A stretch of 55,160 nucleotides of DNA from Catajapyx aquilonaris (GCA_000934665.2 JYFJ02002538.1:1-55160), one strand, 5' to 3'; shown: positions 20,740 through 47,899, counted from the first letter of the stretch. The notes: generated from the sequence alone by a model not told the origin. A program made the numbers and translations.

Positions 20740-20794
<55 letters not shown>
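20481..20794 (+). mobile_element. Full-length tRNA-derived SINE with V-SINE-like central domain and (ATT)n tail
   Basis: A box TGGCGAAGTGG (20494) and B box GAGTTCGATCC (20537). Core GTTCTCTCCATGTTCGCGTGGGTTTTCTCGGGGTTCTCCCGTTGCCTCCC. (ATT)n at 20741-20794. 15-bp TSD ACTATGTATAGTAGT at 20466-20480 and 20795-20809. Confidence 0.92.
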
Positions 20795-20799
<5 letters not shown>

Positions 20800-21915: not shown

Positions 21916-22184
21916 ATGGAGGAAGAACATGATGAAGGCAAAGGAAGCGGTCGCAGAACTGGAGGAAGGCAGACCGAGATCTTGACAGGAGATTATGGAA
22001 ACAAGTCAGTAGAAGGAAATGAATCTTCTCAAGATGAAAGTCACTCAGCATCCAGTGAAGATGCAGATTGTGAAATTTTAGAAGAAGGCCAAATTCAACC
22101 TGCACGTAGTGAAGAGGGTGAAGATTCATCAGTTTCAGGAGAGGACAGTTCTTCAGGCAGGGGAGAAACTTCATCAGTTCCTGC

Positions 22185-22237
<53 letters not shown>

Positions 22238-25200: not shown

Positions 25201-28200
25201 AAGGGTGCTAAAGCAGTGGATATTAACTGCCAGTAAGTACAGTACTGTATATGAAAGAATTTATTTCATCTTAACCCCTTCACTACCAGATGGCCCAAGC
25301 CAAGCAGATTTTGGCTTATGCATACTCCGAAGATATTTTACAAGACATGTCGTTCTTTGCGAGAAATAAATTTATCTCATATGGTTCTACTTGCGGTTCT
25401 CGCTTGCGGAGCAATATGAGATGAATCGTACTTCGCCAGAAGCAAATAAATTTGAGAGTTTTCAGAAGTGCCAGAAAGCCGCAAATAAGTATTAATTTAT
25501 TTCTCGCAAAGTACAACGATTTCAGCAAATTCGTCTGGGATGGTTCTCAAGGTGGTTATTCCGCATATTTTCACTCATTTCATAATTAAATCAGCCATTG
25601 GTCAGCAGTACTTGAATATAGAGATTTTATAGCCTTTTTTGGAAATTAATTTAGGGACTTCTAGATGAGTAAAATTGTTCCAGACACATTCATAGTGTTT
25701 TCCCAGATCTGGTAAGAATAGCTGTTGTCATTGGCAAAATATCTTGTCTGTATCTTCTGAGTACGCTTAAGCGAAAATCTGTGTCTCCCCCTTTTGTTCT
25801 CACAAGGGAAGTGTAAGTGTTGTCCATGGAGTTTCTGAATGAAACTTGGCACAATAATATAGGCAGGTAAGTTATTAAAGAAAATGCAAACAATTTAGGC
25901 GGATGTCCACAAGGTCAAAAGTTATGACCTCTCGAACTCACAAGGGACGCTTTCCAAGGTCTCACCGATTTTCTTGAAATTCGGTGCATTGGTAGCCCCC
26001 AAAAAGGGGTCACCGGGTCATTGTGAGGTCACTTCGGGTGCATTTTTCATCCCTTACGGGCGAAGTTTCAGATGTCACACTCAAAAACGCAGACATTTTA
26101 TTGCATCACTGGAAAGGGATAATTACTCTGATTACAAGGAGCTATATTGCTAGATTGCAACCATATTTGAAAAGGTAGCTTCTGAATTTATTCGAAAAAT
26201 AATACAGAAATTATTTTTTGTCAAATTACGTGCCCGATTGGCATCAAATCCAGCTTATAGCTCTTGGAAAATTCAGAAGATCAAGTTCCCTCATCTGTAG
26301 TAAGCCGGAAGCATAAACCACCTGCAGATGAAATGAAGCATCGTACATTAGCACCTACAACAACATGTTACGTATAATATGACAGTGTGGGATAGTACCG
26401 TACAGTATAAAGAGAGAGAGGGAGAGAGAGAGAGAGAGAGAGAGAAAGCAGAGAAACTGTTTTTAAATACTGTACAGGGGGATTCTCCCGAATGGAAACC
26501 GAAACATTCCCCAATAACTTTTTAACTATGGTATGGTTCCCCATGAAAGTGGACATGTAAGTTACTTACCTTGTATCGTGCCAAACAAGGTCTGACTAAA
26601 GAATATACCAAAGGTGGTCCACTCCAGCATCCAATAATTTTTAAATCAGAGTCTGCATATTGCCGAAGACCCCTGCTGATAGGCGGACGCGATCCCATCC
26701 CTCTCCCACCCGCCCGGCAACGGACCATTGCCTTGAGATGCCCTCGCTTATTAATAGGGGGCGGATAGTTATGCTCTTAAAAAGGTCGCAATATGCATGC
26801 AAATATTCCCCTAAAAATAGTGAAATATTCTCTCAAATATTCTCTAAAACCTGCATTGAATTCGCGATTTATTCTTGCGTTACCCTGAAAAATAAATACA
26901 TGCAAATTATGTGCCATGGACTTGAGACTTTATCTTATACAACTTCATCATTTCATAAATTGTCTTCAGTTTCACTATTGAAGTGACAATGCTGAGAGAC
27001 AATATTTTTTTCCTAATTGGATGCAGTTAATCGCTGCCTTGTCTCACTCAGAGTGGCCTTGAGTATTGAAAATGACCGCTCCACATCACATGTCGTTATT
27101 GGTGCATTTCAAAAAGGTAAGCTATTGTCCCAAGGTTTGCAACTTAATAAATAAAATACAAAAAAAAAGTGGATAACAAGATTAACAAAGTAAAAAGAGT
27201 GAAATATTTGAAATGTCGTTAAAGCCAAAATATGTCATTAACCTCGAAATATTCTTATATATGCAAAATAAGACCCACTTTTTTGGACTCCTGATGTCAT
27301 TATTCGGATTTTTGTACAAATCACGCCCTTGTTCATTCAGAGGTGCTGTTCTGCCTGCCTTTCGTAGTAGTGTGGGTAGTTGTGTGTGTATGGTCAGGCA
27401 AATGGGGTCTTGCCATTTACCTTGTTAGTGGTTGGTCCCGCAACATTTTTCACTGCTACTGTACATTTTGTACTGGATCCAAGAACTGATTACCCCTACC
27501 AACCCCCAACATTCCCTTACCCCTCCCCCAAACTTGCACCCACACTATGTGACTAGTTCCAAGTTGATGAAATTCTAATACACACAAAACCTGTTTACCT
27601 TGTCGTCACACCATTTACAGCTGCTGTTGCATTTCTAGCCCTTTGCTGTTTGGAAACACTGAAAAGTGGTTGTAGTTTACTTCTGGTCTTTTATTTGTGC
27701 TGATAATAATAACTGCTCACTTCAAGCAGAGGGCAACAGTAAGCTAACACATCCGACTGACTTGTATTAAAAGGGAAAGATGCATATGATATACGAGGGG
27801 TGTTATATAAGTTCGTGGTTTCAAGTAGACATACGCGAGACATGACAAAGAAACAATTTTATTTCTCAACATAGTACCCACACCGGTCAATACACTTTGT
27901 CCATCTTCGTGGCAACTTCTCCAAACCGCTCTGGTAGAAGGAAGAATCTCACCCCCCCCAAGACGTCATCCACAGCTGCCTTGACCTCTTCGTCACTCCC
28001 ATGGAGTCGACCCCGCAGGTGTTTCTTCATGTTTGGGAACAGGTAGAGGTACCCAGGTTTCATCCTGTGTGACCGGAGGAGCGTAAAATCCTTCTGCATC
28101 AGCATTCAGCGGGTCCAAATTTAATATTGTGAAATCTCCCGACGCGCCGCCTTCTGTTCGGCGACAACATTCGGGGTACCCATCGTGTTGACACCTTCCA

Positions 28201-31200
28201 CAGGCGCAGGTAGTCATGTAGTATGGTGTGGATGGAAAATGTTGAGATGCCCACCACCTCAGCAAGGTACCTGATAGTCAGTCTTCGGTCTCCCATCACT
28301 AGTTCCTCCACTTTGGCCACATTTTCTTCGGTGGTGGAACACACGGGTCTTCCGGAGCGGAGGTCGTCTTTTAGGCTGTCTCGGCCGTGTTTGGAGAGGG
28401 CAATCCACTTCTGGATCATGCTGTAGGATGGTGCATCGCCAGCCAATGTATCCTTCATGTCCTCAAAGATGTCCTTGGCACCCATTCCCTTCGCCACCAG
28501 GTACTGGATGACCACGCGATGTGCGATGTTCGCCATCTTCACAAAATGCTGCGTACCCTTTCACATCCGAATTATTTCTGAACCCAAGGACTTTGACACC
28601 TATGTCAATTGGGTGGATATAGGGGTTTGAAGGGTGGCTCGATTTAATGGCGATGTTTAGCTTCTGCATTTGCTTCTCCTTCTAGGCGAAACCACGAACT
28701 TATATAACACCCCTCGTACAGTGAAACCTGTCCATAATTGATCCTGAGGATAGTGGAAGCTTGTCAACCATGGAAAATTTTTCTGGTCCCATACAATTCC
28801 ACTTTGCACAGGTTTCATTGACTGCTTGCTTGCAACTTGCAGGTTAATAATTACCATAACAAATTACTGGGAGGCGGAACACACCCTTCCTTACCCATGG
28901 CAGTAATTTACATAACAGTCTTCTTGAACAAAGTGTCACCTTCATTGCTCACAATTTGAAAACTACTGAGAGGTACTGCCTGTGATGTTCACATGTTGAT
29001 AATTCCTGGCCTACTATTTACCTGTGACATAATTTTCAGTACAATTGGTGGTATTCACCATTGTGTATCATTCCCTAGTGAAAGTTGAAATTTTAACTTA
29101 CGCTGTCTGAACTTGTTAAGTTCTAGTGCTTGCATCATTCCTTATGGAGAGTCACATTTTGTGATCTGGAGGCTTGAGATGCACTTGACCCTAGAAAGAA
29201 TATTTGCCAGTTGACTAGACCCAACTTTTAACTGGCTATTAAGAACTTAGCAAGACAATTTTTTGTTGGTCCTTCTGAAGCATAAGGAAGAAGCATTGTA
29301 GAAGCAACTGTTGTAACAATGGGTGGCAGCAATGGCTGGTTACCTTCTCGCATAATTTTTAAATGTTATGCTGATGGAGAGGAGGCATGAGCTGCACAAA
29401 ACAATTGGAAAATTATCATCGTAATGCAATATTGATTTGGATTAGTATGTCTCTTGAGTCATGGCATGTGATGGTTATTAGTGTGATGGAAATGTTTATG
29501 TTTTACAATAAGCACCTTTCATGGCATCTTTGCTTCTCTTCCAGGGATGAGGTTGGGCTAACTCCTCTTATGATGTCGTTAATTTTTGAGAAGCAGGAAA
29601 TTTTTGATGTCTTGATGGAATTTGGAGCTGATTGTAATGAGCACATAGATGATGATGAGTGCTTGCCACTACACCATGCTCTAAGGGTTGGGAACAGCCA
29701 GTAAGTCTCTTGTCAAATGTAAAGTTTGTGCACAAGAATTATTTTATATTTACTTCTAGAGCTGCAGAAGTGCTCTTGAAGAAAATGGATCCACGTGTCC
29801 TGAATCATTTCAGCAAGAACAGAGCCAAAGTGATGGACATCTTTTCTCTGGCATGCAAGAACAGGTAAGGATTTAAATATGAATTTACCTCACCCCAACA
29901 GAATGTAATAAAGGGACATAAAACTACATATGTGCCAAACCGAGACTTCTTGCCAAGTGAGCCTTTAGTTAACTCACGTCAGTTACTCTTAGTGATCCAG
30001 ATGAGGTAGGATGTGCCTTTACAACAAAAATTGAGTAGACTCCAATAATTTTTAAAACTGAAAATGTTTATGATATTTGGGGGTAACCACCTGCTCTAAA
30101 ATTGGGTTGTCAATGTCAACAGTATTTTTTGAAGAGCTATTTCTATTAGGGAAAAAAAAGAAAGAAAAAGAAAGAAAGCTTGACACCAGCTGAAAAGAAT
30201 TATTCTTGGTTAAGAGCGCGCTCTAGGCTACGCGATCCATTGTTGCGGGGAGCCCGTCGCGGCCCGGCCCGTGAGTTTGACACTTCTTCCTCTCGCTGTC
30301 ATGGCCGCAAATATGGAGGTATCGGCATGAAACTGGAGTATATGGACGCGAAAGAGTTGCACTTTGAGGTGGTGCGTTTATTTTTCTCCTGGGGCGATAT
30401 TTGCGGCCGCCGCGGCCAGGTACAGTTTTTTATTTTGACCCGCAATCACTATTTTCAATGTCGGTACCTGTGAGATTCGAGCCCATGACGAGGTTTTTAC
30501 GCCGAATTACCGTAAGTGTGTGAAAGGGCACGAGTGTGGCAGTCTTGGTTTGGCCAAACTTTGGGATCAAAAATACCCCCCTCCATGAACAATAACAACT
30601 CGCACGAAGAAAGCGACGATCTGGCAGCGCCGCGGTGACTGCCAGTTCTGCAACCACGGCGACGGGGATAAGGTAGAGCGCTAATAAATTATTAGAACGA
30701 TGTAAACAAGTCAAGGGTGGCACAGTCGCCGTGGTTACCGAACTGGCAGTCACCGCGGCGCTGCCAGATCATCGCGTTCTTAGTGCGAGTTGTTATTGTT
30801 CATGGAGGGGGGTGATTTTGATCCCAAAGTTTGGCCAAACCAAGACTGCCACACTCGTGCCCTTTCACACATTTACGGTAATTTGGCGGAAAAACCTCGT
30901 CATGGGCTTGAATCTCACAGGTACCGACATTGAAAGTAGTGATTGCGGGTCAAAATCAAAAACTGTACCTGGCCGCGGCGGCCGTAAATATCGCCCCAGG
31001 AGAAAAATAAGCGCACCATCTCAAAGTGCAACTCTTTCGCGCCCATATACTCCAGTTTCATGCCGATACCTCCATATTTGCGGCCATGACGCGAGAGGAA
31101 GAAGTGTCAAACTCACGGGCCGGCCCGCGCCGGGCTCCCCGCAACAATGGATAGCGTAGCCTAGAGCGTGCTTTTTATGGAATTTTGATTTTATTTTCTG

Positions 31201-34200
31201 GTATTTGAAGAGTGTGAAAGCTGTACAGCAATTGGGTTATACATATTGTGGGAAAAGATTCAAGTTTCACCTAGAGAATGATGTTTACTTCTGCCTGGGC
31301 ATGTCCAACACCTGGCACTAGTAGCATTAGGGCGGAATTGTGGTGGCTCCCACATGTACACTCCAACAAGTGCCTGTAAGCATGGCGGCCAGTAAAGGTG
31401 TTGTATATCGGCAATTGTGGTGGCCTCCCATACCGGCTCTTGAATTGGCCGGACTCACCCCCTAGTTATCACTTGCAATGCCTGGTATTCGTGATGCAAT
31501 GTGCTCTAACAGCCAATCCCGGAACAGGCTTCTCCTTGCGCGGGCTGGTAGAAATACGAATTCTATACATTACGTGAGAGAGTTGCACAGTAACAATACA
31601 GATAACAATATAGAAGACGAGAAAATGCATGTCTGCAGCCAGTGGGAGGAGGCCGAGGTCCTCAAATTGCGGTTTCCAAGAGGTATAGGTCCTCGTCGGT
31701 TACCTGAGGTACCAAGGGGATTTGGTGGGTTGTGTGTTCTGTCCAACCCTGCCAAATCTTCATGGTACCTCGAGGACACCTGGGAGTGCCAATGCTGTCA
31801 ATGCAGTAGGGGCAAATAGACGGACGGCCACCGAGACCAGAGAAAAAGGGTACAACCATATGGCATGCAGTGAAATAATTATATTTTATGTCAGCTTGCA
31901 AAGAAACCAATCTGAGTCCCAGAACATGAAGCATTTCATTTTATGCCAATGATGTCAATAACCTGTAATCACACATTAGGCTTAATAACCCTGACTAATA
32001 ATAAAGCACAAATTTAAGTACATGTTTGAATAATACCAGAGAATGGTTCCACTCCCTTTTGTCACTACTTTGTTACCTAACAGATCCTAAATGAAACTGC
32101 TTTTCAACTCTTCACTCATTAGTAATAATCACCGCCCTTCGGAACAGGCTTAACTCACATATTTATGTTTTTGTGCAAGTGGAGGTGTTTTGCAGTGTCT
32201 GATGGGATTCGATTTATTTGTAAAGGTCCCTTGTTGTTGTGGATGGGGGTTTTGCTGTCAGGTTGGGTGGCAGTCATCCTAGGCAAATCAAGAGCAGAGG
32301 GCGGTGGTGATTGTTGCAGTGTATGGATCCCCATTCCTTTTGAAAATCCATCGGATTGCATCAGATCTAATTTTTCATGAGGTCTTTAGGTGGGCAATGT
32401 GAATAAATTGTGGCTGGCGGCGAAAATCTTTCCCAGCCATAATGCACATCCAATCTGGCCCCCGGGCCACCCCCAAGCCCCAGGTGGTCCTAGGCCACAC
32501 CTCGCTCCATTACTTTGGTCTGCTGAGGAGGCGATGAAAAATAAGACCTGATGGAAAGCAATTCAAAGTGGCCCCCTGGCTGCCCCCAAACTCCCTACCA
32601 GCCTGAAAAAGCACAGCGCCAACCCTCCTATAAGTCTTGGGGGAGCTAGAGACGTCCCCTAGATTTGCGGTATGGTTTCAATTCCACGCCTCCCATAACT
32701 TTCCAGCGCAATGGGGTCCGTCGTATGCATGGGAGTTGCGTCCCGACTTATGCCTCTGTACGCTTACAAAAGCCACCACGATTGCGCCCTTAATGAATAT
32801 CCACTTGGCGCCCAAGGCTACATGTGCACTTGAAAGTAATTTGTAATCACTACCATCAGTTTTGGCATGAGATGTGAATTGTTTTAACTAGGCACGTTTT
32901 AAATATTTCCAGCTTTCAGTCCGTGCCGCTACTCCTGGAGAAAGGATTCACGTTTGCGCCCCTATGTTCCTGGACTGATAGGAGCATTGGTGGAATACCT
33001 GACATTGGCTTTGCCAGAAAACCCTCTGCATGGCAATCAAATTGTGTTAGTCATTTTGTGTCCCTGCTAACACATACTGCACCGAATTTGGCGAACTATG
33101 ATTGCTGCCTACCATTCACCCTCCTGTTGTCCCAATGTGACAAGGTGTTGCCATTTTTGGAAACGTTTGCAGACCAAGGTAAATATGCACCTATTTGTAG
33201 CCAGTTGAATGAATGCATGTTACTCCTAATTTTGGTAAATGTGCCATTATTTTCATATTATATTCCTTAGAACAAGTGCATGCTTTCTCCACCCAAACAG
33301 TCCTCACTTGGGGTGGTGCTTTTGGGGTGGGAAACGTTGCCAAGGTTTTGAGAAAACTATCTGTGCCAATATTGGGAGTCAGAGACATTTTTTTGCCACT
33401 GGGAAAAAACCTATTTGGTATCATCAAAATCATTTGGCCCAATTTTGTGCAAATTTACAAGACATTATTATATGTTGGTAGACTTGATACTACAATGACA
33501 CTGCCATCCCAAGGAAAAAAGCCCTGCCTGCTAAACCAATAAGGTCATAATTATAGGGCATTAACCTATCTATTCCCACCAAGATGTGAGTGGTATTGTA
33601 CAGGAATCAGTGAAGATTTCGTAATATTATTGCCAGGGGAAACTTATGCCAGGTACTACTGGAAACAAATAGTAGGGAGCATGTGACCTGCTGCAGACTT
33701 CATTTTTTCCTTAATTTGTTAAGTTGAAGGTCTCATTCAATTCATTCAGTTGTCTTTTTTCATGGAATTAAAATATGGCCACTCTTTCTCACCAGGCATG
33801 CAGGTGAACCCGCCTCCAAACTCGGATGCTGCGCCTATCCTGCCCATTTGCCATATGACGTACAATGCTGACCTCTCTGATGATATGTGGCTGCAAATTT
33901 TTTCATTCTTGGAAGATCATGGATTCGACCCCGATTACATCAGCCATCACAATTCTATTGGCTTTCCAGATATGTTGGTGTATGCCTCATTGAACAATGC
34001 GCGGGTGCTTGCCTTTCTGTTAAGGTTCAGCAGGAATACACCAGTTTCTCTGCTGGAAAAGTGGACCTGCTTTCTAGCACAGCTCGGGAGGAATGGGAAT
34101 CGTCTTACAGAATCCTGCTCAGCACTGTTTGCAAAGCGAATGAAAGGCATGGCTCTGGTTTGCACCACACTGGGGATTCCTTTGACCCAAAGGGTGAAGG

Positions 34201-34551
34201 TGAAGCAGTTTGAGGATGCAGTGAAAGCTGTGACTGGCGTTGAGAGCGACTGGGACCACATATACAGTGGCATGGGTTAGATTTTCATTTTATTGAAATT
34301 GGCTATAGTCAATGCCTGTTTGTCAGTATTAGCAAGTTTTTTAAAAACTGCCTCCTTGGAACTTTTCAGATCCTGTGGCACCCCTTCAGCAAATGTGCAG
34401 GACAACCATTCGCTCACTACTGTCGGAGAGGCTGAACCCTGGACAGTTGATGAAGAAAGTAGTGGAGGGGTTCAAAATTCCTACTCTTGTTGCGTCATTT
34501 CTTCTGTATAAAGACATTGACATGATGCAGTTCCTTCTTGAGCTTCAATGA
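21916..34551 (+). CDS. Ankyrin repeat and SOCS box protein (ASB-like), copy 1, 792 aa. Exons 21916-22412, 23015-23187, 24056-24211, 24865-25013, 25090-25232, 29545-29700, 29760-29864, 32913-33178, 33724-34275, 34370-34551
   Basis: Ten phase-consistent exons total 2379 nt. Acidic N-terminus, then ankyrin repeats (GTTLLQEAVSCGSAEIVKILLDHGADPN; DINCQDEVGLTPLMMSL). C-terminal SOCS box with BC box PLQQMCRTTIRSLL and Cul5-box-like IPTLVASFLLY. Confidence 0.9.
22186..22236 (+). repeat. (GAT)17 coding microsatellite giving poly-Asp in ASB copy 1
   Basis: 17 uninterrupted in-frame GAT codons; absent from copies 2 and 3. Confidence 0.95.
23326..23866. mobile_element. Non-autonomous Tc1/mariner-pogo-like element (MITE)
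   Basis: Imperfect 20-bp TIRs (T)AGTTGACTCCGGATATAAC...GTTATATCCGGTGTCAACTG and subterminal CTGTTATAGC repeats. A related terminal fragment ends GAGTCTACTG-TA at about 24693-24750. Confidence 0.7.
24551..24690 (+). repeat. Fragment of the interspersed repeat also present at about 48460-48830
   Basis: AGTCACTTC..GAGAGCCGGTGTACACCCTCACTGGTGAGC...CATATGACGTAGTTTGCCTT is shared with 48481-48620. Confidence 0.75.
25275..27330. mobile_element. Probable piggyBac-type non-autonomous relic; only the left end is visible and the right boundary is approximate
   Basis: Begins TTAA|CCCCTTCACTACC exactly where similarity to the copy-2 intron (…TTTCATCTTAA) stops. Similarity resumes at about 27340. No matching right TIR found. 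Confidence 0.4.
26410..26444. repeat. (GA)n microsatellite
   Basis: Direct inspection. Confidence 0.9.
27794..28716 (-). mobile_element. Internally deleted mariner transposon (923 bp) with defective transposase
   Basis: Perfect 29-bp TIRs CGAGGGGTGTTATATAAGTTCGTGGTTTC with TA on both sides. Transposase from ATG 28536 carries the HTH region, RSGRP, WVPRML and VTQDETWV. It is frameshifted and jumps directly to YLFPNMKKHLRG, so two catalytic Asp motifs are missing. Confidence 0.96.
30213..31174. mobile_element. 962-bp foldback element (about 450-bp inverted arms, about 60-bp spacer), PIF/Harbinger-type TTA TSD
   Basis: 30213-30663 is the reverse complement of 30725-31174 with few mismatches. 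TTA lies at 30210-30212 and 31175-31177. Confidence 0.9.
31330..32789. mobile_element. Non-autonomous PIF/Harbinger-like element (1460 bp)
   Basis: 19-bp TIRs GGGCGGAATTGTGGTGGCT / AGCCACCACGATTGCGCCC (2 mismatches). TTA TSD at 31327-31329 and 32790-32792. Absent from the copy-2 intron. Confidence 0.75.
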
Positions 34552-34664
34552 GCTGCCATAAAGGTGAATATCTGATTCGTTGAGAATGTAGCGCCACATT
34601 TGCTTAACCCTCCATCTCAATTCTATACACTTCACAGACATCTGCTAGAAGTGTGTGATGTGTA

Positions 34665-35248
34665 TGTCGTAGCCCCATAACGAAATTGGGCACTTCATGA
34701 AATGTCTATTGAAATTGGGCACATGCTGTAGTGCAATCTCCCGTGAAGCATTACAGCATGTGCCCAGAAATATTAGACTGTTCACGAAGTGTCAGCAACA
34801 GGTTGGACTGATTCCGTAATTCAGAATCTACCCATGTACATGAGCAGCTGAGCAAAACCAGAAGGTGTGGAGGGCATCAGGAGATGCAGAGTTCAGGCTC
34901 TACCTGCCCATGGCCTGGACAAAATGGGAGGAGGGAATGTCTGGAAGTCCAGGAGTTGGTCCTGACTCTTGAGCCAAGGGTAATCCAGGTGACTGTACGG
35001 AAAGGTTGTCATCTGTACTGTGATTGCATCAGGAGTCTGCATATGACTTTGAGATGACCAAATTGGTCATGAGAATGCTGAAGAAAGAAGATTTGCATCA
35101 GTGCACTTTGGATACTTCCTCGGACATGTCATTGCCCCACCAAATGACACATGATCAACCAATCAGACAAGTACTTGCCTTCACTCACTGTACAAATGAC
35201 AACCTTTCCGTACGGTCACCTGGACAGCTGGACTATGGGGCTACGACA
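34665..35248. mobile_element. 584-bp TIR element inserted in the 3' UTR of ASB copy 1
   Basis: Perfect TIRs TGTCGTAGCCCCATA / TATGGGGCTACGACA flanked by TA. The paralogous UTR (about 47200-47240) lacks it. Confidence 0.85.
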
Positions 35249-35378
35249 TATACAGCATAATTGAGATGGAGTGTTAAGTGAATGGATGTTTTGCTCATTT
35301 CTCAAAGTAGCAGATTTTTGTTAATGTATTTGGACATGACCATGTAAGGTATCTTTTTTTTCTTTTTTACTACATTGA

Positions 35379-35384
35379 AATAAA
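35379..35384 (+). terminator. Polyadenylation signal of ASB copy 1
   Basis: AATAAA followed by GT-rich sequence; the same context is conserved at 47353 in copy 2. Confidence 0.7.
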
Positions 35385-35969
35385 GTGTCACTTGTTGGCA
35401 GATGAGAATTATGGCTGTGGTTGCTACGATTAAGAGTGCTCACTCTTCTACTTCACCCTTCCTGGCCAACTTTTTCCACCAGATAGAGGTTGAGGCTTTC
35501 AAATGTCATTTTAGAGCTATGTAAGTAATAGATAAATGCAACGAGTGTGCCAACTAGACAAAGGTACTTATCACGTCCCAAGGACGTGCAAATCGTCTCC
35601 AACGTCAAGCTACCAGCTCCCTGAACTGCCACTTACCGGTAACCTGCAATACAAAGGGGAGAGCCCCCCCCAGACCACAAGTGAACAGCACCAAGTCCCA
35701 GCTCAGAATGCCTCTTTATTCCTCCTTCCCCCAGCCTGAGCAGACGTGGGGGCAACCCCACATATCACACTGTGACATGCTGTACAAAATGTGCATCAAT
35801 TACCCTTGCCCTGGAGTACATTTGCAAATGGCGACTTTCCGTCTAATTGAACAGAGACATTTCAATTTCTCAAACAATTTTAAGTGGATTCTTACAGTTC
35901 AGAGCAAAATTAGGTGTGTTTAGTAATATATTTATGATGTAAATAATTTGGTGCTATAATTTGAGACAC

Positions 35970-36162
35970 ATAATAATAATAATAATAATAATAATAATGG
36001 ATACCCCGTGATAGGCCCCTTGGGCCTCTTAGGGGATCATCTTTTGAATAACCGACTTTAATCATTTGCCTGTAATGTGATGGATTTTGATTGCGGGAGG
36101 AAACGAGAGAACCCCGAGAAAACCCACGCGAACATGGAGAGAACCCATCGAAACGAAACTCT
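35970..36162 (-). mobile_element. 5'-truncated copy of the V-domain SINE
   Basis: Reverse complement of about 20580-20790 including the (ATT)n tail. 10-bp TSD TTTGAGACAC at 35960-35969 and 36163-36172. The tRNA head is missing. Confidence 0.88.
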
Positions 36163-36920
36163 TTTGAGACACTAATATAACAACACTGTGGTGATCTGCC
36201 AGAAATGCTGCAAACCTACTCGCACATGCTCAAATCTCTTCTCTCATACCACGACAGAGTAGGAGGAATCCACCTGAAACGAACTGAGCAGTGGATCTTC
36301 AACAGTAGAGCTAATATGGCTAGAGCAATGCCATTTTTTAAGAGTCTGCATTCCAAATGTTCCCAAAAATGCGTCTCACTTTCAAAGACCCAGAAAATTT
36401 ATATAATATATATTTTAAATAAGCCTGTGTAATAAATGCTTGTTTCTTGCAAGGTAAATTGTGTTGACTACATGTTAACCATGATCAGTATGCATTTGAG
36501 CTTTTGTCCATAATTTGTGTTGCTGGCCCAAAATGCTTATGCATGCTCTCATATTGGAGGATGGAAGAGCAGGTCTTGTCACAGGGTGGGTAAGAATTCA
36601 TTGCACATAAAAAAATGCAAATTATTTTCAAAAGTACCTCGCTGATACATGTCGAGTGGGTCTATGCACCTTTATGCTGCTTGCACACAAGTGGATGACC
36701 ATCCAGACTGCTGTAGATGTTGCATACCTCAGAACATTCCTGGTGTGCTTTCGTTCGTAATAATATATATAATAAATATATAATATTACTAATAAATAAT
36801 AATGCAAAGCCAAAGAAATGTTGGTGGACATTCGTAATTCGCGGTTGCAGGGTGACCAGGTCATTGCTGTTTTCAACCTTGTTTCAACCCAATTGTTATA
36901 ATAATAATAACCATCCCTGT

Positions 36921-37210
36921 TAATTATGAAACAATTTGGCCGCAAATATGTACTTTAAAATTATAAATTAATAACGATTAACCATGGGTAAGCACATTCT
37001 CTGCTATTGGCTACTTTCAGGCAGTGCTGGCGTCTGATTGGTCGGATCGTGAGGAGTGAGAGTTTTCACCTGTCAACCTTGGACAGAGTGGAAAAAAAAC
37101 ATGGCGGGCTGATCTTTTCTTCGCTCAGGTCGCGCGTGTTTGACATAATGACATATCCGTCTCTATCGGGGCTCTCCTTCCCTTCAGCCGGTCCATCTCC
37201 GTCGGATAAG
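36921..37210 (+). promoter_or_regulatory. Duplicated promoter and first exon of ASB copy 2
   Basis: Closely matches 19156-19441: both ATTGG boxes, AAACATGGCG and donor AAG|GTGGGT at 37210. Confidence 0.75.
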
Positions 37211-38589
37211 GTGGGTCTGGAACGTGGGCCATCCAGAGGGAGTCGGGGAAGGAGTCCGGGAAGGGCAAGAACAGGTCGTCGGCTGTAAGGGGGGCAAAAG
37301 CCGTCTGCTTGTTTCGAACACTGCTGCTGCTGCTGGCGAAGAATTCCACTTCTGAGGCTGTACATAATAATAACTATAGTAATTATGTCTAATTAGCACA
37401 CAATTGGAAAATCTAGATTTGCACATCATTATATTGAAATTTTCTTAATGGTGCTGTGGTTATGATCACGGTTTATAGAAGCGTTAGAGAATTTTAAAAG
37501 TGTAAATAATTGTGTTGATTTTTAGAACGTTCGTGATTTGAAGAGTTGCATGTTGTTTGTGAAAATCAAAATTTCAAGAAACGAGTGGATCTTGCAACCC
37601 TGTTTGAGGCATGATGTTAGCAAACCTTACGAGAGGGGACAATGCAATTAACTCCACTGATAGACTGTACTCCCAATTATCCATGTTGTGGACTATTCAT
37701 GCATCGCCAAACAATTAAAGTCCAAAAGAATGTCAGTATGGCTTGCGAACAAATAAATCCAACAAGACTTTTTCCAGAAAACAAAATAATCTGTTAAGTT
37801 TCATTGTCTTGATTACACCTGATTTCAAGCAGAACACAATAATGTACAAGTCATAAAAAAACGGTAAATAGCTGATTTTTATATTTTGTAGGACCATTTT
37901 CGGATTATCTGTTTTTCCCTATTATTATCTGGCCACATCCGTGCATCCATTAGCACATAATAATCGGGATTACAGTGTGTGTCAATTTTAATGGACAGCT
38001 TTCAGTCCTGTAGAATTGCTCATCTTCCATCATTTCCATTTCAAAAGTGAAGGTTTTAAAACGTTCATAACGCAAATGTGAACTTAATATTTAAATTCGA
38101 AGGGTGATTTCCATGATCGATTGTGCAGTGACCAACAGTAATTTTTATTGGGAGTTGTACCTAGTAATAATAATAGCCTATTATTACATGAAAATGCAAA
38201 ACTCATTTTGTAAATATCTGTTCTCTGAGCAGTGACAGTCGAGGCTTGAAAGTTGAGAATTTGCAATTTCTTTGCATTTTCTCTGGCTACAGCAGGCACT
38301 GGGAACATGCCAGAATCGGTATTGTACTTTTCCTGAGAATGGTTGTCACATGCACTGGAAGGGAGGATTTGAGTCCTTGCCCATCGGAAGTAAAAGCTGA
38401 ATACAGTATACTTATGCTCAGTCCAGACATGTTTCCTGCATATCATCGGTGATCATGCAAAACCTCGTATCTTCCATTGGTTTTTGCTGGAGATACGAGG
38501 TTTTGCATGATCACCTACGATATGCTGTATATGGCTATGTGGATAATTTGACTGCATTACTCAGATTATTAATACTTCACAGCAGAAAC

Positions 38590-41500
38590 ATGGAGGAAGA
38601 ACATGATGTTGGCAAAGGCAGCAGTCGTAGAACTGGAGGAAGCCAGACTGAGAACTTGACAGGAGGTGATGGAAACAAGTCCGCAGAAGCAAACTCAGCA
38701 TTTCATGAAGATGGTTCTGCAATTATTGTAGAAGAAGGTGAAATTCAACCTGCACTTGATGAAGACGGAGAAGATTCTTCAGTTCAGGAAGATGATGAGG
38801 ACAGCCAGTGGGAAACAATGGATGAAGACGACACTATGGATGAAGACACTATGGATGAAGAAAGTGACAGCCAGTCTGGAACTACAGATGGTGATAAGGA
38901 CAACTGGTTTAAAAACTTTTGCGCCACTGTAGTTGGCGTCCTGGATTCCAGAAACCAGCCTTATCGAGGAGATGACTGGCGTTTTCATTACAGCACGTAA
39001 GTTACCTGTTTTTTCATTGTGGAATGGATGCCTTGATTTATGGGGCAAGTGGATGTTTTTACTCGCATCATTATCGACTCATTATCATCATCATGTCTTT
39101 TTACTTTCAAGCGATAGTTTGGATGATGGACTGAAGTCAGCAATAATGGACGGAGATGTGAAGAAAGTGAAATCTTACTTCTCGAGCTCTAGACGTCATT
39201 CAACGAAGGACATAATGGGCCTCTCACTGATGTATGCAATTGAAAAAAAGAATTCTGCAAGTGTTTCCAAACTTCTCACCATAGGTAAATATTATTAATA
39301 CAGTACCATCATATACGTAGTGCCATTAGTGGGCTAAAAAATTCGGGTAGCATTTTCATCACACTGCTAGTTACAGCTAACTTAGCAGTACCAGTGTTTT
39401 TCACACTATGTCACTCTGTTCTGCTAATTATTATTGCAAGTTTTTGGGATGCAAATGTTAGCCATTCATAGACATATGCATTCATATTTATACAGTGCTG
39501 GACACATTAGCTGTCTCTGAATGTTTTTTTTCCGTCAGCAACGGCCCAGGGTTACCTGGGCCGTTGCTGACGGGAAAAAAAAAACAGTAGCAGTGATATG
39601 CAGGAAAAAATGGGAAAATGATGATATTAGAAGCAATCAACTTTGGGACAATTATCCCTGGACTCATAGAAAGGTTTTCGTCCACAGCACATGAAATATA
39701 TTCCATCCCTGAGGAGGGGGTGTCAATTAATATTAGGGGTGTGCTAATTCAATGTGCGTCAATTGATGGATTCTTTCGGTTTTTGTGTCTTTAACGCGTA
39801 ATTCGACCACCGCTAAAACGAATGGAGACCATGCCCTGTATGTCAGACACGGCGTCTGTCTCGTAATTTGTCCCCATGAGACTTCATATATCAAAATGAC
39901 CTTCCCCATATACGAGTAGGCCTACGTGTCATTCGCATCATATTCGCGCCAGGAAATTAAAGGACATCTCAAGCAACCTCCCATGTCTGATGTAGCCGGA
40001 AAGTGCCCCAACCCGTTGTGATCCTGAACCCTGCACCTTACTTATGACCATGCTTACGACGAGTCCCTTACCCAACCAACCTTATACCCAGTGACCCTCT
40101 CATCCACCCACTGCTTCCCTTCCACCCATTACCCTGACCTTGATTGGGAGTTGATGACATTCAGTGTGGACCTTATTTTATTAAATTGGCAGACAAGAGC
40201 ACACCGAACACTTTCCCGACCATCCATTCTGTGACTCCATCACAGCATGTGGCGAGTGTGATGAAAATAAAACAGTTTCTCAAAATAAAAATGTCCCCCC
40301 CAGCTCGCTTATCCCTGTGCCCATCGCCTGATATTACCACCTGTAGAACAGCACCGCCTCTGGCAGGAATTGATGCAATTAATGAGCACAGTAAAATGAA
40401 AAGCAAAGAGTTCCAGGCAAAACAAACTTCCCCCCTAAAGAGCCGATGGCTGATAACGGGGTATGAATTATTTTATATTTATTTCTTCCAGTCATTCATC
40501 TATATCAGGTCAGGAAAGTAGCTTGACCACTGCTGATTTTGCTCTAAAATTCTGGTGAATAGGTATCAGTACACCCCATTGTGAGATCCAAAGTATTAGC
40601 TGTCTAGGATAGTATCTCATTGGCATATTTAAATCAACAATAATATTCCACTGCCAAACTATCTATTGTTATATTTTATGGGAAGACATGATATTTCTAT
40701 CAAATGAATGGCAATGAAAAGATGAACATGAAGGTAGAATATATTGCTGTTGACATTATGGTGAAAAGTGATTGTTACAAATTAATTCACAAGTAGGTAA
40801 ATTGTTCCTTCACGGCTAGCAAGAACTTCTAGCATGTGGACAGACACCTAAGCGCTTTGTTATAGGAAATGATAACTATTGAGTGTCTGTTGAATTTTTC
40901 ACCTTTCAGGTGGCATGGATGTTAAGTATCGGATGTTTGAAGGGGGAGACTCACCTTTACAGGAAGCTGCATCTAGCGGTTCAGCTGAAATTGTTAAAAT
41001 TTTGCTTGACCATGGTGCCAATCCAAATCAGCAGGACTACTATGGATGGATAGCTATGCATTCTGGTAAGTATGTGCTGCATGTGCAATGGAAGTAGTCA
41101 TTTTCATGAAATGGATGCTTAGATGGTGCACCTGCAGGGTGTATAGCAGTGCTTCCCAATTTCTTTCGTTGGCGACCCCAGAAACAGTCTCTGGTATAAT
41201 GCAAGCAATTTTAGTAGGAAAAGCAAACAAGCCACTGCCAGATTGGAGGGAGTGATTGGCTTTCTACCAATTTCTCTCGTGCTTTTCCCCCATCTCTACC
41301 TGCCCTTCAACGTCACCCCCACAATGTCCAAAGATACTTTGAGAAAACTTGTGAAGAGCTGGCAATACCATGCTGGCTGACACTTTAGCTGGTTGGTCCT
41401 CTTTACAATTGATGGCGACACGGTGGTGTAGTGGTTAATGCCACAGCCTTCCACCTCTAAGGTCCCGAGTTAGATCCCTGGGTCGGATGGATGACACTAT

Positions 41501-44166
41501 CTTATGTGGAAGAGTTTCGATGGGTTCTCGCCGTGTTTGCGTGGGTTTTCTCAGGGTTGCCCCCGGTTGCCCCATTACCTCCCACTACCAAAAACCCATT
41601 GCACGAATGCCAGATAGTCTTAGTTGCTTTGGCACACACAACAAAACCAATCTTTACATTATTGCATTTGTAAGATGTTACGGCTGGAATCAGGTGGCCA
41701 ACAGCCCAGGGAGGCCTGCTAGCTACCCAGCCAGATTTAGCATGCCTTTGGTTGGAACTGTACATGCTAGCATGACACAGGTGGGTTCCACCTGGTCTTG
41801 TACAGAAAGATTAGAGGTGATGCCCAGAATAACCAATCATGGTTGGCTGTCTTCAGTTATGTTGGTCAGTGTTTATATCCAAGGAAAATCAAAAGTCGAT
41901 TTTTAAAGAGCACATTTTTACACTGCACGTGGGTGACAATATGAATTTGTATTTTTTTGGGTGGTTCCACCAATTCTTTCTACACACTCCCAGGTACACT
42001 CCAGCTATGGCTTTGTCTTTTACAAGTGCCCTTTTTAAAACCTAAAATTGTGGTCAATTTTTTTACTGATATTATTTTACGAATGTGAATGAGAACCATG
42101 AAATTAATATTTTTATTGATAAGGGTGCGAACAAGGTGTGAAGCTAGCAACTAATGAAACATTTTCTTGATAATTCCAGCTTTAGGAGAATCCTACCGTG
42201 AAAATAACCTGGAAATAGCCGCCTTACTTTTGGAGGCAGGAACAGACCTGAATAAACGGTACGCCTCGGTAAAAGGAGGAGAAGATGATGGAGAATGCTT
42301 TGATCCAGCCTGTGATTGTGAACGTGAGGAAGTAAGGGTTAACATTTTAAAACACTTGAAAACTAATTGATTAGGTGCAGTCTGGTAACATTTGCATTTA
42401 TCCTTTTCAGTGTGATAAGATGATAGTCAATAGGTCACGATTTGGATTTGATGTACATACTCTGCTTCACTATGTTGCAATGGAAGGTAATGTGTCATCA
42501 TTGAAATTTCTGCTAGAGCAGGAGGGCTCGAATGCAGTATATATGAACTGCCAGTAAGTGCATTGAAGGAATTTATTTCATCTTAATTATAATGAATGAT
42601 ACTTGTAAGCATGATCATGCATTCTTTGTGTTACTAAATCAAGTAATTAATATGCCAATTATTTCCTTGGCCCAAAACAAGTGTAAGATTTATGGCCAAG
42701 AAATGTTGGGATTGTTTGCTGATCACTGGATATAGTATGCCATGAATGGCCCACAGCCGTCCTTCTTCCTCCCCACCTTCCCCGCCTTTCTTATCCTATT
42801 CGTATCACATTTGTGTTGTCACTGGGACCATAATTGTTGTCCCAAAGCAAGTAAAATTGTAGGGGGTGATCAATGTCAATGCTTCATGTGTTTGCAGTGA
42901 TTTTCTAGGGAGCATGGTGTGAGTTTTATGATGGTTACTATGCAAGAGATGATGATTTTGCACCATTTCCTGATGCACAGTGACTGCTGTTGACCATAAT
43001 CACTCTCGTGTCCTACTCGCTAGGCAACCGTTTCAAACATGTGGACTGTTCTGCTTGCCTTTTGTTGCAGTGTGAATCGGCGCGAAAGTCTTGGGGCAGG
43101 AAAATGTGTCTGGTCATTTACCTCACTAGTGGTTGATCCCTCAACATTTTTCACCCCTACTGTACGTTTTAGACTGGGTCAAGAACTGATTACCCAACAT
43201 TCTCTTGCCTGGCTTTCAAACTTGCACCCAAACTATGTGACTACTTCCAAGTTGATGGAATTCTAAAACACAGCAAAACCTATTCACCTTGTTGTTGCGC
43301 CATTTACAGCTGCTGTAATGGTGCATTTCTAGCCACGTGCTGTTTGTAAACACTGAAAAGTAGTTGGAGTTTCCTCCTGTTCTTTTATTTGTGCTTATTA
43401 TAATAACTCCTCATTTCAAGCAGAGGGCAACAGTCAGCTAACACACCGACTGACTTATTTGAAAAGGGAAAGATGCATATGCTATGCAGTGAAACCATAA
43501 TGGATCCTGAGGGTAGTGGAAACTTGTCCATTGCGGAATTATATCTGGGAACTGACATAGGACATGCAATGTATCTTTTGACTGATGTAGCAGAAACCTG
43601 TCCAGTATGTAAAATTTTTTGTGGTCCTGTTCAATTCCACTCTGCACAGGTTTCTCTGTATTGACTACTTACTTGCAACCTTCAAGTTAATAATCACCAG
43701 AACAAAGTACTATGAAGGGGATCATGCCCTTGCTTACCCATGGCAGTGATTGACTTAGCAGTCATCTTGAGCCACACAATAAAAAGTGTTACTGAATGAT
43801 CGGTACAAGTAGTGACAGTACTAATTAAGTAAAAATCCAGCCAAGTTTGCCATCAGTTGTTTGCGAAAGTACAGAAATTATTTGGTATGGAGAAGTAGGA
43901 ACTGGAAGTAAAAAAGGAAGATTGAAAAATAAGAACACAAAAAAATGAAACAAGGCCAGGTGTGAGCCTGCAGCCTTGCGATCTGTTGACACCTGCACAA
44001 CCAGCTCACTTACCCCGGCACAGCTACAATGGCTGATAGAGAACTGATCAACTGATAGAGAACTTTGACTTAGGGGAAGTTCGACTTATGAAAGTCTTAC
44101 TCTTAAGGATTTTTAATGGACTTACCCAGCCGTAAGCCCCTTACACAAGCCCTTACACAAGAACAA

Positions 44167-44203
<37 letters not shown>

Positions 44204-47107
44204 AAGCTGCAAACATCAAGTTTTAAAAACACTGGCAATCAAGCATCAAGCTTCCAGTCAGATCATCCATCCAACCAGACAACCAGTCCATGAACATCAA
44301 ATCCTATGAAAGTCTTACTGTAGTATGTCTCTTTGAGTCTTGACATGTGATGGGAAAAGGGCCTTTTACAAAATCTTTTCTTCTCTTCCAAGGATGAGGT
44401 TGGAGTAACTCCTCTTATGATGTCGTTAATTTTTAAGCGGCAGGAAATTTTTGATGTTTTGATGGAATTTGGAGCTGATTGTAATTGGCACAGAGATAAG
44501 GATAAGTGCTTGCCACTACACCATGCTCTAAGGCTTGGGAACAGCAAGTAAGTCTCTTGTCAAGTGTAAAGTTTGCGCACAAGAATTATTTTATATTTAC
44601 TTCTAGAGCTGCAGAAGTGCTCTTGAAGAAAATGGATCCACATGTCCTGGAAAAGTATGGCAAGAAGAGAGCCAGAGTGATGGACATCTTTTCTCTGGCA
44701 TGCAAGAACAGGTAAGGATTGAAATTTAACTACACCTCACCACAACATAATGTGATAAAGGGAGCCTTGTCTGCTAAAAACATTGCAATTTCAATTCAGT
44801 TTGCATGTTTTCATCTTGTTAAACACACCAGCTGACAGGCCTGTGTGTTATGTTGTGGAATTGATCCAAATTAGGCAGAGATTACCTTTATGAGTGGGAG
44901 TCTGTCTAGGTCTCCACATAACCCCCTTTGCGTACTTGGTAGAGTTGATATCTGGTGCTCAATTCCTGCCACGTGTTTTGTAACATTTTTGGAGTAATGT
45001 TTGCGAACGCTGCAGACAGTGTATGAATCTCCCATCTTACCTCGCCAAACGGACTGAATTTCAACTTAGTACGGCTTGTGTGTTGATTGTAATACATACT
45101 TTAAATTATCCCTACCCTGACGGATCACTGTATTTTGTAATCATTATCGGCATGAGATGCACATGTGAAAAGTGTTTTACCTCTTTTCATTTTTTATATT
45201 TCCAGCTTTCAGTCCATCTCACTTCTCCTGGAGAAAGGATTCACTTTTGAAACCCTATGTTCATGGACTGATAGGAGCATTGGTGGAGTACTTGACATTT
45301 GCTTTGCCATAAAAACCTCCCCATGGCATTTTGCAACTCCTTTTGTGTCCATGCTTGTGCACACTGAACCAAAGTTGGCCAACTATAAATGCTGCCTGCC
45401 ATTGACCCTTCTGTTGGGGTCCCAATGCGACAAGGTGTTGCCAAATTTGACGAAGTTTGCAGCCCAAGGTAGATATGCAACTATTTGTAGCCATTTGTAT
45501 GAATGTTAGTCCTAAATATGGAACAAGTGCTACTTTCTTATTGTGCTGCAAAATTCTATGGCCAAGAGTAGGCTATATTGTAGGCTCTACAGCGTAAAAA
45601 TGGGATGAAATGAGGACCTACTTGATTTTTACAGCCTATTTAAGGGCCTATTTTGACTGTTTTCAGGGCCTAAATGCCTACCTACTTGAGGGTTTTTAAG
45701 AAGCTAGAAATTCGTTCCTTACTCATCACCTATGTGCATGTAGTACAGTGTTGGACATTAATGATGTCATACTGCTAGTGACATTTTCCAAAGTGGTACA
45801 AGAACGATTTGAAGCAATGGATAGTGCAAGCCATGCGAGCAAGACAGATTCTTCTGCTTCTTCGGAAAATGTCGCTAGCAGTATGACGTGATTAATGTCC
45901 AACACTATACTACTTTCCCCATAAGCATGGCAGTAGTTTGCAGAGGACTGTCTATGCGGCAACTGGTAGGAGCCTATGTACCATTTTCAAGTGGGAGTGT
46001 GTGGGCCAACGGCCAAGCAGTGTTGCAAAAATTTGGCAATGGGTCCACTCCTAGTTATATTATGTTGGTAGACTTGATACTACAGTAACACTTCCATCCC
46101 AAGGGAAAAAGCCCTGTCTGTAAAACCGGTAAGGACTTATACTCTTAGGGCATTAACCTGTCCATTCCGACCAAGATGGGAGTGGTACAGAAATTCAGTG
46201 AAGATTTTGTAATTTTGTTCTGCTAGAAACAAAAGTAGGGGGGACATGACCTGGCTTAATTTTTCCCTGATTTTTAAGTTGAAGGTCTCATTCAATTCAT
46301 TCAGTTGTCTTTTTTCATGGAATTAAAATATGGCCACACTTTCTCACCAGGCATGCAGGTGAACCCGCCTCCAAACTCAGATTCTGCGCCTACCCTGCCC
46401 ACTTGCCATATGACGTACAATGCTGACATCTCGGATGACATGTGGTTGCAAATTTTTTCATTTTTGGAAGAAAATGGATTCGACCCCGATTACACCAGTT
46501 GTCAGAATTCCATTGGATTTCCAGATATGCTAGTGTGTGCCTCCATGAACAATGCTCGGGTGCTTGCCTTCCTGTTAAGGTTCAGCAGGAATACACCAGT
46601 TGCTCTGCTGGAAAAGTGGACCTGCTTTCTAGCACAGCTCGAGAGGAATGGGAATCGTCTTACAGAATCTTGCTCAGCACTGTTTGCAAAGCGAATGAAA
46701 GGCATGGCTCTGGTTTGCACCACACTGGGGATTCCTTCGACCCAAAGGGTGAAGGTGAAGCAGTTTGAGGATGCAGTGAAAGCTGTGACTGGCGTTGAGA
46801 GCGACTGGGACCACATATACAGTGGCATGGGTTAGATTTTCATTTTATTGAAATTGGCTATAGTCAATGCCTGTTTGTCAGTATTAGCAAGTTTTTTTAA
46901 AAACTGCCTCCTTGGAACTTTTCAGATCCTGTGCCACCCCTTCAGCAAATGTGCAGGACAACCGTTCGCTCACTGCTGTCCGAGAGGCTGAGCCCTGGAC
47001 AGTTGATGAAGGATGCAGTTGAGGGGTTCAAAATTCCTGCTCTTGTTGCGTCATTTCTTTTGTACAAAGATATTGAAATTATGCAGTTCCTTCTTGAGCT
47101 TCAATGA
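38590..47107 (+). CDS. ASB-like copy 2, about 762 aa if fully spliced; acceptor of coding exon 6 is mutated. Exons 38590-38996, 39112-39284, 40910-41065, 42180-42331, 42411-42553, (44392)-44547, 44607-44711, 45206-45468, 46279-46830, 46926-47107
   Basis: Exon-for-exon paralog of copy 1 with open frames and an intact SOCS box (PLQQMCRTTVRSLL...IPALVASFLLY). The acceptor CCAG|G of copy 1 reads CCAAG here (44388-44392). Confidence 0.82.
39532..39573. repeat. Perfect 19-bp inverted repeat with 4-nt loop, flanked by T and A tracts
   Basis: CCGTCAGCAACGGCCCAGG-GTTA-CCTGGGCCGTTGCTGACGG. Confidence 0.9.
41414..41595 (+). mobile_element. Diverged copy of the tRNA/V-domain SINE (head and core only)
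   Basis: GGCGACACGGTGGTGTAGTGGTTAATGCC...GGTCCCGAGTTAGATCC...GTTTCGATGGGTTCTCGCCGTGTTTGCGTGGGTTTTCTC aligns to 20484-20650. Confidence 0.85.
44102..44304. mobile_element. 203-bp insertion containing (CA)n, flanked by a 15-bp direct repeat (probable retroposon fragment)
   Basis: TATGAAAGTCTTACT at 44087-44101 and 44305-44319; (CA)n at about 44169-44198. Confidence 0.6.
44905..45130 (-). mobile_element. Relic of the C-terminus of a rosa/maT-like (DD41D/DD37D) transposase
   Basis: Translation ...LSAAFANITPKMLQNTWQELSTRYQLYQVRKGGYVET* resembles the C-terminal helix and GxHxE end of these transposases. The relic ends in CACTG-TA. Confidence 0.5.
45746..45907. mobile_element. 162-bp MITE, Tc1/mariner type
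   Basis: Roughly 45-bp TIRs start CAGTGTTGGACATTAAT with TA flanks; a second copy lies at 50451-50612. Confidence 0.9.
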
Positions 47108-47352
47108 GCTTCCAAAAATGAGAATATTAGCAACTTTGAGAAATGAACAACACATTTGCTTAACCCTTCATCTCAGTATTATATACTTCATGGACGTGTG
47201 CTAGAAGTGTGTGACTTATATAATTGAGATGGACTGTTAAGTGATTGTACATAGTTTTACTAAATTCTCAAAGAAGCAGATTTTTGTTAATGCACAATAT
47301 TTGGACATGACTGTGCGAGTTTTTTTTTTTTTTAAATTTCTAATTACATTGA

Positions 47353-47358
47353 AATAAA
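47353..47358 (+). terminator. Polyadenylation signal of ASB copy 2
   Basis: AATAAA in the same context as 35379. Confidence 0.7.
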
Positions 47359-47899
47359 GTGTCACTTGTTGGCTGATGAGACTTATGGCAGTGGTTTTTA
47401 TATGAGAAGAGTGCTCATTAGATAATTTAAAACCACTCTTCTACTTGGACCCTTCCTGGTCAACTTTTTGTACTGTATTATACCAGGTAGAGGTTGAGGC
47501 TTTCGGATTTCATTTCAGAGGAACGGCATGTAAGTAATAGGTAAATGCAAGCTGTCTACAAACAAGGTACTAAATAATCGCATCAATTATCCTTGCCCTG
47601 GAGTACATTGGCATAATTATGGTACCTTTCCATCCAATTGAACCCAGGCATTTTACGTAATAATTACTTCTACAATTGCACTTCCACTTATGCGATACGT
47701 GGGGTGATAAATCGCATTTGCGCATATTGCTATCTTCCCTGCAAAACACACAGCTGCAAGCACAAATGTTAGATTAATTAATTCCCAGGCGGCACTGTAC
47801 TGTTAATTATTATAATAATTATAATTATAATTATAATTTCAGTGCTAGTCAGTGGAGAAGTCGAACGCGCAACGTGAGTGGCTGGATATGTCCCTTGGA

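Follow-up and report, generated by a model that had tools for sequence, protein, structure and literature searches.

Expansions of ubiquitin-ligase adaptors comparable to the one described here are those of the MATH-BTB genes of nematodes and the F-box genes of plants. Unstable and fast-evolving adaptors have been described for nematode F-box genes, where they were proposed to form a layer of innate immunity. In Caenorhabditis (PMC8665587, cited from the part available), the unstable F-box expansions show tandem duplication, birth-death turnover and changes of gene structure, and join a conserved cullin-adaptor module to a faster-evolving substrate-binding part. The family reported here resembles them in all these respects, but it is built on the SOCS box and ankyrin repeats, counts tens rather than hundreds of genes, and carries a selection signal that is suggestive only. 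An arthropod version of this kind would extend the F-box pattern to another cullin system.

The closest relatives in architecture are the ASB proteins (ASB1-18), the substrate receptors of CRL5 ligases, with N-terminal ankyrin repeats and, at the C-terminus, a SOCS box containing a consensus BC box. Our genes share this organization; unlike ASB proteins, they have a cullin box without LP-hydrophobic-P, an acidic N-terminus, a Cys/His-rich insertion, a family-specific helical region and about 20 unstable copies in one genome, and the spacer within the box is 5 residues longer than in ASB8. A third comparison is with duplicated genes that undergo conversion and keep divergence peaks, as reported for opsins in the available portion of PMC3924837. 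Patchy identity and near-identical introns beside divergent exon patches are found here too, but exons 6-7, which hold the divergent patch, fit neutrality as a whole.

Taken together, we favour, with a probability of roughly 0.45, an ankyrin/SOCS adaptor family in which exons 6-7 are shaped by conversion and specificity is diverging in repeats 3-5. By analogy, each protein would serve an Elongin B/C-cullin ubiquitin ligase as its substrate adaptor. As a discovery the family is real but modest, and the signal that first drew attention to exons 6-7 is ordinary.

A tandem array of ankyrin/SOCS-box genes

The window, i.e. the whole stretch of 55,160 nucleotides that was analysed, is contig C1213 of a 286-Mb assembly. 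Aligned with itself, it shows two genes in collinear arrangement, one spanning about 19150-35860 and the other about 36900-47650. The array consists of four tandem genes, three of which begin inside the window. Gene models, domains and family membership are direct observations, and the coding exons are as follows.

21916..34551, + strand: copy 1, ten coding exons, 768 aa, open frame (models, Pfam, spliced contigs)
21916-22412, 23015-23187, 24056-24211, 24865-25013, 25090-25232, + strand: copy 1, exons 1-5
29545-29700, 29760-29864, 32913-33178, 33796-34275, 34370-34551, + strand: copy 1, exons 6-10
38590..47107, + strand: copy 2, ten homologous exons (homology to copy 1; contigs in run X5)
38590-38996, 39112-39284, 40910-41065, 42180-42331, 42411-42553, + strand: copy 2, exons 1-5
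44392-44547, 44607-44711, 45206-45468, 46351-46830, 46926-47107, + strand: copy 2, exons 6-10
50078..54591 (50078-50394, 51271-51443, 54433-54591), + strand: copy 3, first three coding exons
C2812 11673-11828, 12465-12620, 13190-13345, reverse strand: copy 4, three copies of exon 3, 156 nt each, phase 1-1

The protein of copy 1 is composed, in order, of an acidic N-terminus, about 8 recognisable ankyrin repeats, a helical C-terminal region and the SOCS box. Copy 2 encodes 738 aa, on the sole condition that its exon 6 is spliced at the homologous base. Copy 3 starts near 48000, inside the window, and its exons 4-10 are on contig C2812. We infer the join between the two contigs, across which the paralogous contig C12117 bridges the intron; the joined open frame is 750 aa long. 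Copy 4 follows copy 3 on C2812, with an open frame and exon 3 present three times in frame. Two of these three exon-3 copies finish in a non-ankyrin tail, and all three could be included in frame or could be alternative cassettes. That the locus is a tandem array of ankyrin and SOCS-box genes, as a preliminary description had it, is borne out by the Pfam domains and by this four-gene arrangement.

Copies 1 and 2 are spliced. The evidence comes from run X5, which bears no RNA label on its record and was called RNA-like from its spliced contigs, with a GT-AG joint across the 95-nt intron. Pieces of copy 1 in this run cover exons 6, 8 and 9; those of copy 2 cover exons 7-8 and exon 10 with the 3'UTR, with 0-1 differences. 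Among the contigs aligned from 4 runs, none spans exon 6 of copy 2, a gap that argues neither for nor against its use.

Domains and the cullin box

Among the 11 pieces of copies 1 and 2 scanned with Pfam, three exons (3, 5 and 6) were recognised as ankyrin repeats, and exon 10 as a SOCS box; exons 4, 7 and 9 matched nothing, and exons 2 and 8 matched weakly. The C-terminal SOCS box (PF07525) scores 27.5 and 26.1 bits in the two copies, against a cut-off of 23.5. N-terminal to it lie the ankyrin repeats, about 8 by motif, with matches to DARPin/ankyrin structures. The best solved matches of the SOCS profile are ASB8 (E 0.005), PCMTD1 and SOCS2, and a search of solved structures with the single SOCS exon returned no match. 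Three regions of the protein need closer description.

34370..34551, + strand: SOCS box; BC box fits consensus, cullin box FKIP with its last Pro kept
24984..25092 (42300-42413 in copy 2), + strand: Cys/His-rich insertion C-x4-C-x-H-x2-C, repeats 4-5 (alignments)
33796..34275, + strand: exon 9, family-specific all-helical region without Pfam match

From what is known of ASB proteins, Elongin B/C and a cullin would be bound through the SOCS box, and substrates would be selected by the concave surface of the ankyrin repeats. The sequence of the BC box agrees with the consensus given in the accessible part of PMC13342108. The cullin box reads FKIP in copies 1-2 and LHLP and LEIP in copies 3-4, and LP-hydrophobic-P is kept, as LPLP, in only 2 of the 14 aligned members, both on contig C652. 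This motif is called required for Cul5 binding in the available text of PMC4812663, where no Cul5 binding was detected for SOCS1, whose box is incomplete. The box found here also fits the Cul2-box consensus quoted in the same part of PMC13342108. The proteins might accordingly bind Elongin B/C without binding a cullin efficiently, or use Cul2, and work as decoys, stabilisers or scaffolds rather than as Cul5 degradation adaptors. We consider this improbable, as the last Pro of the cullin box, aligned with the Pro through which SOCS2 contacts Cul5, is present in every member (14/14), the hydrophobic pattern downstream of it is retained, and ASB proteins, which are Cul5 substrate receptors, have several cullins reported for them (PMC7672578, seen in part). 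An ASB-like way of working is likely, but, with LP-hydrophobic-P missing from most members, the family should not be filed among canonical ASBs.

The three Cys of the Cys/His-rich insertion are kept in copies 1-5. In copy 2 a Cys replaces the His, as expected of a metal ligand, and a short insertion is present. From its sequence, this insertion is a possible metal site.

Exon 9 gave a confident, all-helical model (pLDDT 84.6), with no Foldseek match at E<=0.001. Comparisons of this model, at full length, with the ankyrin solenoids of IkappaBzeta, ASB7 and Notch gave a middling similarity, with a Z of about 6 and rmsd of 4-5, within the noise for helical folds. The Atlas search returned no useful match.

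The family across the genome

A genome search with exon 9 found 25 matches, spread over 19 contigs. Fifteen contigs were examined, and 20 loci of the family were recognised on them, some close pairs of which may be alleles; 18 of the 20 have a SOCS box. They comprise copies 1-5, one locus each on C6253 and C7963, eleven loci of a second clade and two loci on C652. Genome-wide, SOCS-box matches number 37, of which 15 are on contigs of the ankyrin/SOCS family. Besides C1213/C2812, tandem arrays occur on C2468 and C652. Broken members are present as well: copy 5 (C12117 and C8067) is a pseudogene with a 4-nt deletion in exon 9, and C6253 and other members carry stops. Further arrays or broken members were noticed on C2468, C652, C6253, C8067 and C12117, and C2468 also contains isolated SOCS-box fragments.

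Exon content varies too. In an HMM scan, exon 7 was found in only one of the 11 second-clade loci, C104. In C2468c, the one member of the second clade that was inspected visually, exon 8 comes immediately after exon 6, and the exons 5' of exon 6 seem to be of low complexity and not ankyrin-like. A pseudogene, exon triplication and exon loss all occur in the family, whose turnover likely proceeds through duplication, gene conversion, gain or loss of exons, and decay.

We compared a profile of 16 exon-9 pieces with 1.84 billion proteins and obtained 6 hits. A single one, the unnamed 134-aa fragment P0002, extends to the family-specific part; the other five match over a short stretch only, among them P0003, a generic ankyrin protein. 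Neither the word-based homolog search nor this profile search gave exon 9 a named relative. The earlier suggestion of a lineage-restricted expansion thus agrees with the count of about 20 loci and one outside relative. On sequence grounds, restriction to a lineage is likely but not proven, the protein set searched having incomplete coverage of eukaryotes. In the literature covered, with most subscription papers outside its scope, we found no description of an arthropod in which ankyrin/SOCS-box genes have expanded. We conclude that the family is real, that it appears to be undescribed, and that it represents a variation on a known type.

Probable conversion and the divergence of exons 6 and 7

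The preliminary description had singled out copies 1 and 2 for differences that almost all change the amino acid. The regions concerned are listed here.

29545..29864, + strand: copy 1 exons 6-7, i.e. repeats 6-8, low silent divergence from copy 2
34116..34336, + strand: near-identical tract, runs of 67 and 153 nt, spanning the exon 9/intron boundary
44390..44391, + strand: copy 2 exon-6 acceptor, AA in place of AG

Its counts were correct. In exon 7 (29760-29864 versus 44607-44711), 7 of 35 codons differ and all 7 change the amino acid; in exon 6 (29545-29700 versus 44392-44547), 11 of 52 codons differ, 9 with a change of residue and 2 silently; and the 59-nt intron before exon 7 differs at 2 sites out of 59. 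Extending this to a "near-exclusively amino-acid-changing" ankyrin region went too far: over exons 2-7, 66 of 293 codons differ in amino acid and 25 are purely silent, and omega between the two copies is 0.69 there, and 0.55 over exons 2-10.

The amino-acid-only pattern of exons 6-7 is no more than expected by chance. The two copies show 3.5 differences at 53 silent sites of these exons and 20.5 at 208 replacement sites; under neutrality, about 4.9 of the 24 differences would be silent (binomial p 0.25-0.44). When codons were shuffled, an equally extreme window of 87 codons arose in 40% of 5000 shuffles. The replacement rate is the same as in the rest of the gene (pN 0.099 versus 0.095, Fisher p 1.0), and it is the silent rate that is lower (pS 0.066 versus 0.18, p 0.05). 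Exons 6-7 show no signal of positive selection, and the adaptive divergence that had been proposed for them is not supported: site models give p 0.49, or 0.26-0.74 once a fifth copy is included, and in repeats 6-8 the positions on the binding face evolve at an omega of about 0.4 (p 2e-4 against 1). Relaxed constraint confined to copy 2, raised as a caveat at the outset, was also rejected, with a branch-model p of 0.69 and changes on both copies. When polarised, these number 3 on copy 1 and 3 on copy 2 in exon 6, and 35 and 33 gene-wide, with 33 unresolved.

At silent sites, copies 1 and 2 have diverged in a patchy manner. Their divergence is low, relative to that between copies 1 and 4, in exon 6 (0.08 versus 0.30), in exon 7 (0.04 versus 0.36) and in the second half of exon 9 (9b; 0.02 versus 0.16), and comparable in exons 4 (0.31 versus 0.27) and 5 (0.25 versus 0.32). 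Identical runs of 153, 72, 67, 65 and 64 nt are shared by the two copies, and three of them span exon-intron boundaries. The run of 153 nt is far beyond chance; for the other runs the expected number is 0.06-0.16 apiece, so that none of them is remarkable singly. The tract at 34116..34336 is likely a product of gene conversion; read depth is doubled on its copy-2 counterpart. The patchiness is a conversion pattern, and we infer conversion as its cause. Exons 6-7 would thus have a low silent divergence because of recent conversion between copies 1 and 2. Such conversion, by cutting silent divergence, together with near-neutral change in the loops, would produce the pattern seen, and make of these exons a clear case of conversion mimicking adaptive divergence in a pairwise comparison.

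One could propose instead, as described for opsins in the available portion of PMC3924837, that selection holds copies 1 and 2 apart in the loops of repeats 6-8 as conversion erases the surroundings, leaving a divergence peak. The changes in exons 6-7 are indeed clustered in inter-repeat loops. In exon 7, a stretch of 34 nt holds all 10 nucleotide differences, with identical runs of 65 nt and 45 nt on its two sides, and the 7 amino-acid changes are confined to 12 codons of the loop that joins repeats 7 and 8, a clustering with P=0.0015; at background divergence this patch has a P of 0.009, before correction, and the joint branch of copies 1 and 2 has an omega above the rest (p 0.08). Such a peak is unlikely all the same. 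The fit to neutrality, the shuffling result, the site models and the purifying selection on the binding face of repeats 6-8 all speak against it, and so do the variation of the same loop in all copies, the occurrence of exon 7 in 1 of 11 second-clade loci, and the possibility that exon 6 of copy 2 is non-coding.

This last possibility arises from the acceptor of that exon. In copies 1 and 2 together, 17 of 18 acceptors end in AG, exon 6 of copy 2 being the exception, and two deletions lie within the 100 nt upstream of it. Use of the next AG shifts the frame, with a stop at aa 349, and three AGs further downstream are in frame. If the 156-nt exon is left out, the frame stays open over 686 aa. 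Exon 6 of copy 2 may therefore be skipped, and possibly is no longer translated.

Possible diversification in ankyrin repeats 3 to 5

Hairpin and helix-1 positions of some repeats are more variable than the SOCS box, as had been noticed at first sight. GY94 site models were run on copies 1-4; exon 1 was omitted, and of the three exon-3 copies in copy 4 a single one was kept. Over all 594 columns, they gave p 1.7e-8 (M1a/M2a) and p 1e-9 (M8a/M8); with columns within 5 codons of a gap dropped, 444 columns remained and p was 3.5e-4, and with multi-nucleotide changes free, p was 0.07-0.12 gene-wide. By region, the signal comes from exons 2-5 (M1a/M2a p 2.3e-6, on only 4-5 sequences and in a region picked post hoc from four); none was found in exon 8 (p 1) or exons 9-10 (p 0.65).

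24056..25232, + strand: exons 3-5, ankyrin repeats 3-5, the sole region with an omega>1 site-model signal
24094, 24121, 24942-24947, 25126, + strand: top codons aa 237, 246, 302-303 and 338 (site models)

In exons 2-5, p is 0.006 with free multi-nucleotide rates, 8e-4 with per-exon trees and 0.003 with a fifth copy, and the statistic was reached in 0 of 96 null simulations. For exon 3 alone, with six copies, p ranges from 9e-4 to 0.12 by model, and codon 237 has five different residues among these six. Of the sites flagged in exons 4-5, all 5 show a further difference when copy 3 is compared with copy 5, versus 11 of 92 other sites (p 7e-5), a check that is partly independent only, copy 5 being a pseudogene and 2 of the 5 sites bordering an insertion. 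Three of the top sites, aa 237, 246 and 338, are ankyrin positions 5, 14 and 2, which are variable in engineered binders, and 302-303 come directly after repeat 4. Position 14 is variable in DARPin design, and it varies in the DARPin/ankyrin structure matches. An engineered ankyrin library randomises positions 2, 3, 5, 10, 13 and 33 (PMC4308713, in the part available; for the DARPin paratope concept, see likewise PMC8683736). In ASB7, the substrate groove is formed by inner helices and hairpins of repeats 3-6 (PMC11263391, available section). When binding-face positions were chosen in advance, omega was 1.4-1.7 in repeats 3-5 (p 0.009-0.11), versus 0.78-0.91 over all repeats.

The outcome depends on the model. 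False positives may arise from errors of alignment, from complex mutations and from recombination (PMC10127084, as far as available). Four-fold sites point to rate variation, with an alpha of 1.2 in the second clade (44 sites) and 1.7 in copies 1-4 (104 sites), the latter not significant alone. With rate variation allowed, p rises to 0.09 (alpha fixed at 2) or 0.05 (alpha free) in exons 2-5, and to 0.64 gene-wide; for exons 3-5 alone, p is 0.22. No robust signal came from the second clade, represented by 312 columns of exons 6, 8, 9 and 10 in 11 loci, 8 of them with exon 6: p is 0.066, and 1 when multi-nucleotide (doublet) changes are allowed. Judged from these alignments, diversifying selection in repeats 3-5 is suggestive but unproven.

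A serious alternative, though short of probable, is the same family with the same conversion and no positive selection at all, the duplicates being relaxed and the variable sites being unconstrained surface positions that mutate fast. It would account for an omega of about 0.55 gene-wide on all branches, for the loss of signal once rates vary, for an omega of at most 1 in the binding-face set chosen in advance, for the negative second clade and for the broken members (copy 5, the possible acceptor loss of copy 2, the stops in C6253 and others). It accounts less well for a signal in exons 2-5 that persists when gaps are filtered, when multi-nucleotide models or per-exon trees are used, and in the test by simulation, for top sites placed on positions that binders vary, and for the five residues at codon 237. 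According to the reading that we favour, the likeliest place for specificity to be diverging is repeats 3-5; there, changes have recurred at a few positions of the hairpins and of helix 1, probably under some positive selection.

A bolder proposal, by analogy with F-box genes, is an arms-race repertoire of some 20 genes, in which repeats 3-5 are selected, exon cassettes are remodelled, and foreign or selfish proteins would be brought to the ligase. The remodelling would comprise the triplication of exon 3, with its possible alternatives, the skipping of exon 6 and the loss of exon 7. We regard this proposal as doubtful.

Neighbouring genes and repeated elements

Upstream of the cluster lie the 3' end of an Eps15-like gene, an F-box-like gene and Cabin1.

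600-4400, + strand: Eps15-like gene, 3' end, very short introns
6377-8002, - strand: F-box-like gene, multi-exon, adjoining Cabin1 (motif)
9233-19000, - strand: Cabin1-like gene, very short introns (homolog search)

The first gene was read from the sequence, and we take it to be Eps15-like. The second, which we presume from its motif to encode an F-box, would be a second type of cullin adaptor beside the ankyrin/SOCS cluster. For Cabin1, 18 homologs were found, and every named match is an insect protein, at 41-49% identity; the host genome looks arthropod-like.

Introns of the window contain inverted-repeat elements, at 27792-28718, 30200-31170, 45743-45910, 50448-50615, 50667-50995 and 52893-53597. 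One of them is a remnant whose terminal inverted repeats measure 31 nt, several are MITE-like, and the element at 45743-45910 has a very high depth in DNA runs. Finally, a short element of the ATG-GCG-GSN-TGA type recurs in the 5' region of copies 1-3 (19343, 37101, 48000), and is either a tiny upstream ORF or a motif resembling what is presumably that of YY1.
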